A program made the translations under genes and the position numbers. A stretch of DNA of 26,103 bases. Origin: Candidatus Thorarchaeota archaeon (lineage in GTDB: Archaea; Asgardarchaeota; Thorarchaeia; Thorarchaeales; Thorarchaeaceae). Shown piece after piece: positions 4,767-23,338 of the stretch; the stretch's first letter is position 1, and each line of letters opens with the position of its first letter. The notes beneath the pieces are model-generated. The model searched no databases, was not told the origin of the DNA, and saw only the letters and a list, made by a program, of their open reading frames with translations. The DNA is taken from assembly GCA_048884785.1 (NCBI GenBank), contig JBHLQM010000051.1, forward strand, positions 1 through 26,103. The letters run 5' to 3'.

Positions 4767-5051
4767 ATGAAGGGACGAAATATCATCCTAATGCTATCAC
4801 ACCTGTTTCGAAAGCATGGAAAAACACTACAAATTTCTGAGGCAGTATATTGCCTGAGTTTTCAATGGCGATATGGCAGCCCTTCTTATATCCGAAAAAT
4901 CCTAACTCTTGCAAGCGAGAGCAATCTGATATCAATTGAAGATGGAGTAATTCGGGCCGAGTTTCTCTATGATTCTCAAAGATTGCACCCCAATCAAGCA
5001 GATGCTTTGGGGAAAATTAGTTTCAGTAGAGATGTTTCACCTCTCTATTGA
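4767..5051 (+). CDS. DUF2240-like small archaeal winged-helix protein
   Basis: Pattern LF-x-KHGK-x-L-x-xSE-x-V-xx-LS-F-x-W-x-YGSP...A-x-xxNLI-x-IEDG-x-I-x-AEF resembles the DUF2240 N-terminal region (recognised from memory); 3' end overlaps the convergent RFC gene. Confidence 0.6.
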   Translation: MKGRNIILMLSHLFRKHGKTLQISEAVYCLSFQWRYGSPSYIRKILTLASESNLISIEDGVIRAEFLYDSQRLHPNQADALGKISFSRDVSPLY

Positions 5052-6160
5052 GATTCTGCATCCTCAATGTTTCCTATTGATGCAAGAAAAGCCATCAGAT
5101 GGATATGAGGGTTTTTCCCTTGAGTCATTCGGTAGTCTATGTCAGAAGCACGTTCCAATATGTGACTCATCTTCCGAGAATCGAAGGGTCTTCTAATGAT
5201 ATCTTTCTGAATCTGAATCATGATATCATTTGGAGAGTATTGCTCAGAGGCAAGAAGATGTCGAAGTGTATCGCGTGCCTGAATCCAATTCTGGCTGATT
5301 GCCAAGGAAACCATTTTTCTCACACCAGTAGTGAGTGTGGTTTCGGAATGGGCGTATACTACATCTTCATTGACTTCTTGTCCTGTTGCAGCGCAAATTT
5401 GAAGAAGATCGAGCCCCCGGCGTACATCTCCAGCTGCCTCTCTGACAATTGAATCAATTCCAGAGTCATCGAATGCTACATTTTCGATCTCCGCTATACT
5501 CCGAAGATAGGATTGCATTATGTCAGGTTTGATTGCAGTGAATTTTATCACAACACAACGTGAGGCGATAGCGGGATTCCATCCGGCAAGAGACGGCGTG
5601 ATAAGAATGAATCTACAGGAGTGTGAGTAAATCTCCATTGTTCTTCTTAATGCTTGCAGCATATTGTTGTCAAGTGCATCGGCTTCATCAAGAACAAGTA
5701 TCTTAACATATTTGTCAGCAACGGTCACCGTTGACGCAAATAGGCTAATAGCTTGAAAAAGCAGTTGACTCCTATTTGGATCTCTTGAGCGGCCCTTTGA
5801 ACTCAATTCTGCTTTGGCCTCACGGAATACAACAGACATATACTCATCAAGCTCAGTTCTTTTTGACCGATCCATTTTTGCCAGATCGCTGATATTTCGC
5901 TTTGCTGAGGCAATGGGATATGACCGAATATCACGCACATTGAGAGACTTGAAGTTTGAATCATAGAAGTCTCCAAGTACACTCTTTGCGAATATATCTG
6001 CAGCAACGGTTTTGCCGGTTCCAGACGGACCGTGTAATATGAGATGAGGAACTGTTCGGGATGCCGCGTATTTTTCAAGCTGAGATTTTGCCTGCTCTTG
6101 CCCTTGGAAATCTGTCCAGGTTTTTGGACGGTATTTGACACTCCAAAGAACAGGCTCCAT
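5045..6160 (-). CDS. rfcS: Replication factor C small-subunit-like clamp-loader AAA+ ATPase (atypical, with insertion)
   Basis: LWSVKYRP (RFC box II), PHLILHGPSGTGKT Walker A, LVLDEAD Walker B, QALRRTME, ASRC arginine finger, GDVRRG sensor 2, C-terminal collar; ATG 6160 preceded by GGTG. Confidence 0.88.
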   Translation of the reverse strand: MEPVLWSVKYRPKTWTDFQGQEQAKSQLEKYAASRTVPHLILHGPSGTGKTVAADIFAKSVLGDFYDSNFKSLNVRDIRSYPIASAKRNISDLAKMDRSKRTELDEYMSVVFREAKAELSSKGRSRDPNRSQLLFQAISLFASTVTVADKYVKILVLDEADALDNNMLQALRRTMEIYSHSCRFILITPSLAGWNPAIASRCVVIKFTAIKPDIMQSYLRSIAEIENVAFDDSGIDSIVREAAGDVRRGLDLLQICAATGQEVNEDVVYAHSETTLTTGVRKMVSLAISQNWIQARDTLRHLLASEQYSPNDIMIQIQKDIIRRPFDSRKMSHILERASDIDYRMTQGKNPHIHLMAFLASIGNIEDAESQ

Positions 6161-6304
6161 TATACACACCGAATGTGTGTTCTCTTAATCCAAAATAAGG
6201 TTGACTCTAAACAGCATTATGAAATCAGACCGAAACCGTAATAGTCATATGGCTTCGAAAGCTCGGCGCTTGTTTACAATTTCAAAATTTGATGAGGATT
6301 TAAT

Positions 6305-20472: not shown

Positions 20473-20498
20473 TGGAATACTTTCGGCTATGTCTCTGA

Positions 20499-20516
20499 GG
20501 GGTTTTTATACCCCCC
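20499..20516 (+). promoter_or_regulatory. TATA box (TTTTTATA) flanked by G4 and C6 runs upstream of the Orc1/Cdc6-like gene
   Basis: GGGG-TTTTTATA-CCCCCC; TATA ends about 28 nt before ATG 20539, which fits a leaderless or short-leader transcript. Confidence 0.5.
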
Positions 20517-20538: not shown

Positions 20539-21675
20539 ATGAAGAGGGTAGACGTCAGTCCTAAGGGGCTATTCGATCCATATTATGTTCCGGAAAAGTT
20601 GCTTCACAGGGATAGGGAGCTTGACAGCATTGGTGGTATTTATGCTGATTCCTACACGGGGGAATATGGAATCAATTGCCTGGTTCATGGAATAACAGGG
20701 GTGGGCATGACTGTATTCTCTCGCTACTTTCTTACGAGATTGATACCTGAGAGCTTCGATGCATATACAATCTACGTTGATGCAAAAAACAAGGACTCTC
20801 TTGAAATTGTTTCAGAGCTCAGCGATAAGGTTCACCGACAAACAAACACTCCAGTGACATTTGCGTTTGACCTTGATGTTCTTTGGATGCAGCTCAAACG
20901 TACTGCTTCAACAACACCAAAGAGGGGTGTATTTGTCATAGACAACATCGATGAACGAAATGAAGAGGTATATGCGAAGGTTGCACGACTCTCGAAAGAG
21001 ATCAATGCAAGCACTATTGGAGTCCTAAATAGTCATGACTATCGACTACTCACAAAGGGACAGGCAAGTAGCATGGCCTATGATTTCGAAGTCCCATTGG
21101 ACACCTACACACAGTCTCAACTCTATGATATAGTGCGAATGCGTGTTGAAGACACCTTTCCTCATGGACTTACAGACGAGATTGTTCGATATATCACAGA
21201 TTGTGTTGTCGAGTTTGATGCATCCAAACCTAAGACAACCGTTGAAGCTCTGAAGGTCTTATGGCCTATGGCATCAAAAGGACAAGAGATTGACTCAGAT
21301 ATGGTGAGAAGTGCAACCGCACATATCAGTGCCTTCGCACACGACCAAGACTACATGGATATCATTGACACCATCAGCATGAATGATTTCATGACACTGC
21401 TTGTTCTGGAGGCTCTCTCTGAGCATCTCATGCGTTACAAGACAGAAACATACATCGACAGGAAAACACTGAATGAGATTGTCCAGATAAAATGCGAGGA
21501 GCTGAATGTTAAGTATGCACCTGATGATATTGAAAGGAGCCTTCAGACCCTGATTTTCCAGAGTGTCATTTTTGAATCAGGATACTCAAGGAATTTACTC
21601 TACGTCCTCGTTCCACCCGAGATTCTCTATGATTCGGCAATGACACTCAGAAGAGAATTAGCAAGAAGAAAATGA
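20539..21675 (+). CDS. Orc1/Cdc6-family AAA+ protein with degenerate Walker A and Walker B motifs
   Basis: LFDPYYVPEKLLHRDREL, NCLVHGITGVGMT, YVDA, VFVIDNID, YTQSQLYDIVRMRV, C-terminal winged-helix-like region. Confidence 0.85.
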   Translation: MKRVDVSPKGLFDPYYVPEKLLHRDRELDSIGGIYADSYTGEYGINCLVHGITGVGMTVFSRYFLTRLIPESFDAYTIYVDAKNKDSLEIVSELSDKVHRQTNTPVTFAFDLDVLWMQLKRTASTTPKRGVFVIDNIDERNEEVYAKVARLSKEINASTIGVLNSHDYRLLTKGQASSMAYDFEVPLDTYTQSQLYDIVRMRVEDTFPHGLTDEIVRYITDCVVEFDASKPKTTVEALKVLWPMASKGQEIDSDMVRSATAHISAFAHDQDYMDIIDTISMNDFMTLLVLEALSEHLMRYKTETYIDRKTLNEIVQIKCEELNVKYAPDDIERSLQTLIFQSVIFESGYSRNLLYVLVPPEILYDSAMTLRRELARRK

Positions 21676-22233: not shown

Positions 22234-22446
22234 TCAATCTGGGTCTTCATTGCCATTAATGGCCTTGCGCATATGGTCAAGCTCCTTGATATCCACTTCA
22301 ACGTAGACTGAACCTGAATATCCGCAACCCTCTGCACTGCAATAATAGGTGGGTGGAACTAGCCAGCCCCCTACTGAACTGGCTGCCGCTCTTAGATTTG
22401 AACTGCCACACTTTGGGCAGACTCGTACAGTACGCTGTGTCAACAC
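22234..22446 (-). CDS. Small Zn-ribbon protein
   Basis: CPKCGS...GGW...YYCSAEGCGYSG; GGAGG upstream of GTG/TTG starts. Confidence 0.8.
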   Translation of the reverse strand: MLTQRTVRVCPKCGSSNLRAAASSVGGWLVPPTYYCSAEGCGYSGSVYVEVDIKELDHMRKAINGNEDPD

Positions 22447-22567: not shown

Positions 22568-23338
22568 ATGAGAAAGCCCAAGTCAGACCTTATGCCTGGG
22601 TTCTTCACAGCAGACCAGGTCATAAGAAGAAGAATGAAGACAGGAATCACAGCTATAGATGAATTGCTCGATGGTGGACTTGAGTGCGGGCTTACCCATC
22701 TCTTCTATGGCGCAAAAGGACTCCATGATGACCTGCTCAAGATGACAGTACACACCCAGGTTCCAGAAGATAAGGGAGGCATTGGAACCCCGGTGATTAT
22801 CATAGATAGTGCAAACATGCTCAAGATCGAGAAGATGACAGACTTTGCGTTTGAATTCGAACTCGAGCCAGAAGAGGTCATGGATAACATCTACATCACC
22901 CGGGCATTCAATTCATCGCAGACCTATGACCTTGTGATGAGCCAGCTGGATGAGTTCTTCCAGCGGGTTCCTGCTCGACTCCTGTTAGTAACCGGCCTTC
23001 CAGACCTCTATATCAAAGAGGGAATGACAGGAGAAGGCGCTCAACATTTGACACACATGGCAACTCGACTAATGACCTTCACTCTGCAGAGGGAACTATT
23101 CACTGTTATCTCAGCACCTCCTGCAGACAAAAATCAAAATGTCCCAGTAGGGGGAAAGGCTCTGGCCAGCTGTGCACAGGTTCATGTACAGGTCGACGAA
23201 CAGAAGTCATACTTCAGGTACACACTCGCAAAGCACCCTAATCTTCCAATTAGGCGGACCTCTCGCTCAAAACCAGTCAGTTTTGGTACGACCCTGCCGC
23301 TCTCGCACTTCATTGGCTCTGAAGACGAGAAGGAGTGA
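22568..23338 (+). CDS. RadA/Rad51-fold paralogue lacking a Walker A motif
   Basis: KTGITAIDELLDGGL, QVPEDKGG, IIDSAN, LEPEEVMDNIYITRAFNS and GGKALA are RadA core motifs; the P-loop reads FYGAKGLHDD and the Walker B position reads LLLVTG. Confidence 0.82.
   Translation: MRKPKSDLMPGFFTADQVIRRRMKTGITAIDELLDGGLECGLTHLFYGAKGLHDDLLKMTVHTQVPEDKGGIGTPVIIIDSANMLKIEKMTDFAFEFELEPEEVMDNIYITRAFNSSQTYDLVMSQLDEFFQRVPARLLLVTGLPDLYIKEGMTGEGAQHLTHMATRLMTFTLQRELFTVISAPPADKNQNVPVGGKALASCAQVHVQVDEQKSYFRYTLAKHPNLPIRRTSRSKPVSFGTTLPLSHFIGSEDEKE

Follow-up and report, generated by a model that had tools for sequence, protein, structure and literature searches.

The stretch of DNA considered here, referred to throughout as the window, comprises 26,103 nucleotides of Candidatus Thorarchaeota archaeon (contig JBHLQM010000051.1 of assembly GCA_048884785.1, positions 1 to 26,103 of the forward strand). 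The source is a metagenome-assembled genome (MAG; G000 below) of 3.6 Mb in 158 contigs that is 91% complete. The gene of interest, here called ORCL, is a stop-free open reading frame (ORF) of 378 amino acids plus stop on the forward strand, and encodes a paralogue of the archaeal initiator Orc1/Cdc6 in which the key residues of the ATPase site are replaced. At most loci of the same thorarchaeal family (the Thor family below) ORCL is preceded by an FAD oxidase gene and followed by gcvH and a Zn-ribbon ORF, both on the opposite strand, and then by a RadA-like gene. The intergenic spacers beside ORCL measure 66 and 38 bp. Coordinates of the features discussed are collected in Table 1.

The best matches of ORCL in the PDB are S. 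solfataricus Orc1-1 (2qby_A, E 7e-15) and A. pernix ORC1 (2v1u_A), and the alignments pair its segments GITGVGMT, VIDNID and ASKPKT with GLTGTGKT, VLDEID and GDARRA. ORCL departs from the Walker A pattern GxxGxGK[ST] in carrying Met for Lys and from the Walker B pattern hhhhDE in carrying Asn for Glu (VIDN), and the sensor-2 arginine of GDAR is gone (ASKP). An initial annotation made from the nucleotide sequence had described these three changes; the PDB alignments bear them out, and the positions it gave are correct (H50-T58 at 20686-20712, V133-D138 at 20935-20952). Alignment with the canonical Orc1 of the same genome adds a fourth loss, as the arginine-finger box LDPRVxSS has become LTKGQASS. 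The Orc1/Cdc6 model TIGR02928 scores ORCL at 77.4 bits, under the cut-off of 181.3, while the canonical copy reaches 410 bits. ORCL scores 59 bits with the equivalog model NF001625 and 55 with NF001623, Pfam returns AAA_22 alone, slightly below its cut-off, and a protein atlas returns an unnamed cluster of ORCL's own and generic Orc1/Cdc6 clusters, with nothing else.

The replacements are fixed in related genomes. The first search covered 24 other genomes of the family, and each has an orthologue of 68-87% identity; a 45% identical relative is present in the same order. ORCL is single copy in nearly every genome of the family. Motif conservation was counted over 104 Thorarchaeota orthologue cluster representatives. 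The position of the Walker A Lys is occupied by Met (81), Arg (14), Asn (4), Ser (3) or Ala (2) and never by Lys; that of the Walker B Glu by Asn (99) or Gly (5) and never by Glu. Sensor 2 follows the pattern A[SG][KRT]P[KR][TS], and the finger segment is variable, with no Arg at the canonical finger position. The sensor-1 Asn is found in 104/104 clusters and is Ser in the 45% identical relative. Residues P8, G10-Y16, P18, L22, R24 and E27 of the N-terminal motif are invariant in the alignment of Thor orthologues (A1), and P18 is at least 90% conserved even among canonical paralogues.

All 23 complete orthologue loci have an intact frame (a 24th, L030, ends at a contig edge), as do more than 100 cluster representatives. 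Most orthologue pairs are saturated at synonymous sites. In the two least diverged pairs dN/dS (the ratio of nonsynonymous to synonymous substitution rates) is 0.064 (L021/L022, dS 0.37) and 0.023 (L014/L018). Across genera ORCL is no less conserved than its neighbours (68-87% against 51-91% identity), and the branch path between G000 and the closed Thor genome G239 is 0.27 for ORCL and 0.20 for canonical Orc1. Purifying selection on ORCL is strong, its chromosomal position is fixed, and its inheritance is vertical. The initial annotation had argued that several coordinated changes point away from sequencing error or decay, and had proposed orthologue conservation and dN/dS as checks. With GKT/DE in no Thor orthologue cluster, dN/dS of 0.02-0.06 and a confident fold, that argument stands. 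An origin from mobile elements, as for the 'shell' copies of PMC3914693, is ruled out for the Thor clade by its conserved synteny and vertical inheritance.

The fold was predicted with AlphaFold2 (AF2) from an alignment of 101 sequences, and this model (pLDDT, the per-residue confidence, 94.4; pTM, the template-modelling confidence, 0.90) supersedes an earlier one from 17 sequences in which the AAA+ part was poor (pLDDT 54.5). It superposes on P. aerophilum Cdc6 (1fnn_A) over 356 of 378 residues with a Z of 29.6 and a root-mean-square deviation of 3.7 A. Other archaeal ORC1/ORC2 structures give a Z of ~22 and eukaryotic Orc1 ~20, followed by Orc4 and Cdc6 at 17.6 and Orc5 at 16. At the site of the initiator-specific motif (ISM), after strand 2 and ahead of the Walker B strand, the model has two helices (87-102 and 112-125), and the winged helix (residues 283-378) has a pLDDT of ~95. 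As modelled, ORCL is a true three-domain Orc1/Cdc6 protein consisting of an AAA+ base with ISM insertion, a helical lid and a winged helix. The full-length frame with promoter and winged-helix C terminus anticipated in the initial annotation is thus recovered, with 378 intact codons and a conserved TATA-like box. Motif losses in 104 clusters, dN/dS and fold together support its central proposal of a full-length, selected, non-catalytic Orc1/Cdc6 homologue. A complex prediction of ORCL with the genome's canonical Orc1, made without controls, scored 0.00 against a mark of 0.32 and carries no weight either way on binding.

When a profile built from the Thor clade was run against 1.8 billion representatives, it recovered a graded series of relatives, among which ~45 representative clusters have features in common. 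None of these has the Walker B Asp-Glu pair (DD, DN, DS, NN, QK and others occur instead) or an arginine finger, the sensor-2 segment contains Pro (EFDxxRPxT or xVPGxx), and the wing ends in aromatic residues where canonical proteins have GRxGRT. Most retain GK[TSN]; loss of the Lys is confined to the Thor branch and a few others. Besides Thor, named members belong to Lokiarchaeia, Promethearchaeota and Ranarchaeia. Among 301 Asgard genomes strong matches occur in 9 of 30 families, and the remaining families have canonical-level matches only. A tree with the archaeal canonical paralogues, as the initial annotation had suggested, sets the family apart: in two trees it falls on one side of a branch with 100% support in the Shimodaira-Hasegawa-like approximate likelihood ratio test (39 of 119 and 20 of 56 rows). 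The Orc1-1-type clade shuts out ORCL with full support. ORCL falls on the Orc1-2-like side, where its placement is uncertain and its branch long. ORCL is ruled out as the Orc1-2 orthologue itself, as closed Loki-type genomes hold canonical paralogues a, b and c together with ORCL and the Thor genome G239 holds a, b and ORCL; in one family the set is limited to a, b and c. Judged from these sequences, ORCL belongs to a separate line of Orc1/Cdc6 proteins that occurs in Thor- and Loki-type Asgard archaea. One fragmented MAG of the same genus has, in addition to the orthologue, a second ORCL-family gene (G001:C32:4188-5207; 28% identical to the orthologue, 110 bits, Loki-type-like), which may represent a further paralogue, a transferred gene or a contaminant (contamination of this MAG is 5%).

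The promoter of ORCL carries an element that resembles a DNA damage-responsive element (DDRE). In an alignment of the 90 nt upstream of 16 ORCL orthologues, A[AT]TA[CG]TTTC[GA]G is present in 16/16, despite saturated synonymous divergence, and a TATA-like box, mostly TTATATA, is found at the same position at these loci. In S. islandicus, Orc1-2 binds the DDRE and turns on the DNA-damage response (PMC6061795; PMC9738581). The consensus of Orc1-2-dependent promoters in that organism is AATAGTTTCRGWDTACTCWS (AATAGTTTCRG...) with the core ANTTTC (PMC6061795), and this core is footprinted by Orc1-2, including on its own promoter (PMC6061795; PMC9738581). The Thor element equals the first 11 positions of the consensus, barring position 5, the free N of ANTTTC, where C and G vary in Thor. 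At non-Thor ORCL loci an upstream ANTTTC[GA] is present in 4 of 6, with a C-rich tract after it in 3 of these.

The Thor family also has a candidate for the cognate protein. Paralogue b is of Orc1-2 type (NF001623, 361 bits, above cut-off), has 1fnn_A as its best PDB match, possesses all canonical DNA-binding residues, and was found in 38 of 40 other genomes of the family. The lineage of 1fnn_A has kept Orc1-2 only (PMC3914693). The core [AT]TACTTTC occurs in the same orientation in 30/30 b promoters and is extended to ACTTTCGG in 24 of these; in the b promoter two TATA-like boxes come after the DDRE-type element. The matching elements suggest that the Orc1-2/DDRE circuit, experimentally characterised in Sulfolobales only, extends into Asgard archaea. 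The only other intergenic exact copy of AATACTTTCGG in G000 (C115:4555-4565; L090 1056-1066) lies ~100 nt upstream of a polytopic membrane protein of more than 436 amino acids without a Pfam match, which is divergent from a ferritin-like gene. The same regulator may act on this copy too, or it may be there by chance.

Residues that contact DNA in canonical proteins are replaced in ORCL. Compared with the genome's canonical Orc1, the ISM Gly-Leu is absent (PFTGL to PVTFAF), the recognition helix of the winged helix has changed from QRR to PDD (RR to DD), and the wing from GRYGRT to GYSRNL. The net charge of the winged helix is -2, as against +4 in the genome's own Orc1; family means are -4.3 +/- 3.3 for ORCL and +2.7 +/- 3.9 for canonical proteins. 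The whole ORCL protein has a net charge of -15. DNA binding by Orc1-2 requires ATP binding, the ISM and both arginine pairs of the winged helix (PMC9738581). No exact match to the origin recognition box (ORB)-like sequence TTCCANTGGA was found in the window, and one-mismatch matches are at chance (13 against 9.4 expected). A position beside an origin or ORB repeats is typical of Orc1-1-type initiators, though not universal. The canonical orc1 gene of the genome, on contig C91, has three ORB-like boxes within 35 bp upstream of its start, which are probably an origin or an autoregulatory site. It is arranged tail to tail with the gene for the PolD small subunit. Contig C15 contains seven TTCCANTGGA matches and may hold a further origin.

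Table 1. Features of ORCL, its promoter and the promoters of two canonical paralogues; positions without a contig or locus label are those of the window.
Feature	Position	Strand	Evidence or remark
ORCL coding sequence	20539..21675	+	TIGR02928 match, AF2 model, 1fnn_A superposition
N-terminal Orc1/Cdc6 motif SPKGLFDPYYVP..LLHRDRE, nearly unaltered	20557..20619	+	Orthologue alignment
P-loop remnant GITGVGMT, Lys replaced by Met, glycines and Thr retained	20689..20712	+	PDB and orthologue alignments
Walker B remnant VIDNIDE, Asp retained, catalytic Glu replaced by Asn	20935..20955	+	D135 invariant
Sensor-1 strand IGVLNSH, Asn164 retained	21016..21036	+	Orthologue alignment
Arginine-finger segment LTKGQASS (canonical LDPRVxSS)	21049..21072	+	Gly in canonical finger-Arg column
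Sensor-2 segment EFDASKPKTTVE (canonical xxGDARxAxxLL)	21211..21246	+	P231 and T233 invariant in A1
Winged-helix domain, acidic, DNA-contact arginines replaced	21385..21672	+	Alignment, model, charge
DDRE-type element AATACTTTCGG	20476..20486	+	-63 to -53 from ORCL ATG; conserved in orthologue promoters
TATA-like box TTTTTATA	20503..20510	+	~16 nt 3' of element, 29-36 nt upstream of ATG
ORB-like boxes TTCCAGTGGAAAT, TTCCACTGGAT, TTCCACTGGAG	L001 2700-2760 (= G000:C91:5466-5498)		Upstream of canonical orc1
b promoter, ~90 nt conserved, GAGCTCGCC..WWTACTTTCGG..ACCTC...TTTAATCG.ACA...CTTTTAAG	L060-L089, ~85-100 nt upstream of b		30 genomes

Three other genes of the window deserve mention. The RadA/Rad51-core paralogue (256 amino acids, 22568-23338, forward strand; Pfam Rad51, 63.9 bits) has a P-loop that looks degenerate. 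It lies two genes from ORCL in most Thor-family genomes, and Loki-type loci have no such neighbour. From their motifs, the ORCL locus houses two apparent pseudo-ATPases of DNA metabolism. The Zn-ribbon ORF (70 amino acids, 22234-22446, reverse strand) has two CxxC-like pairs and no Pfam match. It is found family-wide between gcvH and the RadA-like gene (38-75% identity), and also 3' of ORCL in the same-order locus L031. The weak second TIGR02928 match of the window is a 374-amino-acid AAA+ protein resembling the RFC small subunit (5045-6169, reverse strand; Rep_fac_C, AAA), which is not an Orc paralogue.

With the archaeal Orc1/Cdc6 initiators (TIGR02928; 1fnn, 2qby_A, 2v1u, and 1w5s/1w5t of A. 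pernix ORC2) ORCL has in common the three-domain fold, the N-terminal motif, the P-loop glycines, the Walker B Asp and the sensor-1 Asn. Unlike them, it scores below the TIGR02928 cut-off, combines four ATPase losses with the swaps in ISM and winged helix, has no adjoining ORB boxes and belongs to a separate clade. Sulfolobales Orc1-2 and ORCL are both Orc1/Cdc6 paralogues that are not linked to an origin and have a DDRE-type element in their own promoter. As a separate canonical b exists with the same promoter element, the place of ORCL in an Orc1-2-type response seems to be that of a target or effector, and not of the regulator. A study of the Asgard replisome sorted archaeal copies into Cdc6-1 and Cdc6-2 and noted unresolved expansions; its main text does not describe the ORCL clade (PMC12680538). 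No publication describing the family was found in a literature search, and we regard it as a new, well-defined Orc1/Cdc6 subfamily with a testable regulatory link.

Because the DNA-contact residues are lost, the winged helix is acidic, ORB boxes are lacking and the promoter carries a DDRE-type element, a role as antagonist or regulator is favoured. The initial annotation had named an initiator antagonist and a transcription regulator as alternatives to a subunit of a heteromeric ORC-like complex, and these fit the new evidence better than the subunit. Our preferred reading, which we put forward tentatively and at a little under even chance, is that ORCL is a catalytically dead Orc1/Cdc6 paralogue that acts as a non-catalytic effector of an Orc1-2-type response and is no origin-recognising initiator. 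Such a protein would be incapable of ATP hydrolysis, and in the Thor branch ATP binding in the normal mode is probably absent as well. Its transcription would be controlled by the Orc1-2-type paralogue b, and it would act non-enzymatically, through protein-protein contacts of the conserved Orc fold. Most likely ORCL would serve as a decoy or modulator: by tying up partners of the active initiators, for example MCM or Orc1 itself, it would hold initiation back or redirect it. A bolder version, which we consider improbable, is that the Sulfolobales Orc1-2/DDRE circuit is conserved in Asgard archaea and has as its most closely linked target in Thorarchaeia an ORCL made on demand, which blocks or redirects origin licensing by occupying the partners of Orc1/Cdc6.

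Several observations weigh against this effector role. The first concerns the regulatory link. Paralogue b was not found in this MAG, which at 91% completeness is likely an assembly gap. The extended element is not enriched genome-wide: in the closed genome G239, AATASTTTCRG has 8 matches as against 6 for the reversed control, of which only those at b and ORCL are located in promoters, the other six being inside coding frames or without a nearby gene start. G000 has 13 matches, of which 3 are outside long ORFs; of the intergenic matches other than that at ORCL, one is the C115 copy described above and one is inside a small ORF. Because of this lack of enrichment, a putative regulatory link can be claimed for two genes only, ORCL and b, and no wider regulon is definable. 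The DDRE assignment itself is drawn from sequence identity to a motif characterised in Sulfolobales only. The second concerns the neighbourhood, which at Loki- and Ranarchaeia-type loci has nothing in common with the Thor order and gives no hint of a partner; it was dropped as a functional clue because the Thor order is not found there. The third concerns the protein. Full or near invariance of the P-loop glycines, Thr58, Asp135, Asn164 and the N-terminal motif makes a residual ligand-binding or nucleotide-like function of the pocket possible. The wider family as a whole may consist of ATP-binding switches and not of nucleotide-free scaffolds, because most of its members retain GK[TSN]. The winged helix of ORCL might also still bind DNA, in an altered, non-canonical way.

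The eukaryotic ORC includes AAA+ subunits that no longer hydrolyse ATP. ORCL could by analogy with Orc2/Orc3 be a stable, non-catalytic subunit of a heteromeric ORC-like complex, placed beside an active Orc1/Cdc6 at the origin. The full Orc fold, the conserved surfaces and the presence of a single copy in nearly every genome of the family are consistent with such a role, as is the heterodimer of S. solfataricus Orc1-1 and Orc1-3 on origin DNA (PDB 2qby). Like ORCL, eukaryotic Orc2-5 keep the Orc-type AAA+/winged-helix fold after catalytic loss and have a winged helix that does not obviously read DNA. An Asgard-specific precedent is Lokiarchaeales RfcS2, a paralogue of the RFC small subunit that works within a heteromeric clamp loader; this AAA+ replication protein has lost hydrolysis residues, including Walker B, and is kept under selection (PMC12680538). 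RfcS2, however, belongs to another AAA+ family, retains Walker A and the arginine finger and was co-purified with its partners, whereas ORCL has lost all four elements. ORCL has neither an arginine finger to donate nor a complete site to accept one, and because of this is unable to form a composite ATP site. The acidic winged helix and the lack of ORB boxes close to the gene also fit poorly with a place at the origin. Neither profile nor fold reveals a special affinity to Orc2-5: in an A4 profile search archaeal Orc1/Cdc6 proteins score 80-88 bits and rank, with eukaryotic Cdc6 and Orc1 next (human Cdc6 54, Orc1 ~41), ahead of Orc5 (29) and Orc4 (23), and Orc2/3 are absent among the best 60 matches. 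The family, moreover, occurs in only 9 of the 30 sampled Asgard families. ORC2-5 have been listed as gains in the replisome of the last eukaryotic common ancestor (LECA; PMC12680538), and the ORC duplications have been placed after the split from known archaea (PMC7058166). Taken together, we consider a heteromeric subunit unlikely, though it is the alternative that retains most weight.

A sequence-specific transcription regulator would be a nucleotide-independent version of Orc1-2 with a re-tooled winged helix, perhaps regulating its own gene through the upstream element. Orc1/Cdc6 paralogues can be pure regulators, for example Sulfolobales Orc1-2 (PMC6061795; PMC9738581), the element in the ORCL promoter is strongly conserved, and within Thorarchaeota the recognition helix and a basic C-terminal tail, LRRELARRK, are conserved too. 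However, Orc1-2 has Walker A and B, ISM and both arginine pairs intact, and depends on ATP (PMC9738581), whereas ORCL is without all of these, and both its winged helix and the protein as a whole are acidic. The element is also present at the promoter of b, which with its canonical DNA-binding residues is the more obvious binder. We judge a DNA-binding regulator to be improbable.

Somewhat less probable again is that ORCL still binds nucleotide and is a permanently ON, non-hydrolysing switch, the Lys loss in the Thor branch merely weakening binding. Such a switch would account for the pocket, where G51, G54, G56, T58 (all in A1), D135 and the N-terminal motif show no variation, N164 hardly any, and only position 57 drifts (M/R/N/S/A). 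It would also suit the wider family, most members of which keep GK[TSN] in the absence of DE, arginine finger and sensor 2. Hydrolysis-dead initiators can be functional, as Orc1-1 E147A is active in MCM loading and Orc1-2 E154A is hyperactive (PMC9738581). Substitution of the Walker A Lys in AAA+ proteins, however, usually abolishes or strongly weakens ATP binding; in Orc1-2, K72A abolishes it and much reduces DNA binding (PMC9738581). The free drift at position 57 suggests that the phosphate contact is out of use, and the sensor-2 Arg and arginine finger have been lost as well. The conservation data (intact frames, dN/dS of 0.02-0.06, conserved synteny and promoter, confident fold) rule out decay into a pseudogene as well as an artefact of assembly or sequencing, readings for which the motif losses themselves and nothing more could be cited; we assign them a negligible chance.

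In ORCL an Asgard lineage has on its own fixed an Orc-fold protein that is stripped of every catalytic element and strongly selected across many genera, showing that an archaeal cell can accommodate inert Orc paralogues and put them to use. The family is a natural series, from members with GKT kept to those with the Lys lost, on what the Orc fold does without ATP. The promoter link to b provides a concrete handle, and names a candidate output of the Orc1-2/DDRE circuit. If ORCL were indeed a dead initiator made on demand, an inactive ORC-type protein would be exerting a checkpoint-like control over initiation in the archaeal lineage closest to eukaryotes, and this would be an independent or ancestral case of catalytically inert Orc-fold proteins joining the control of initiation.

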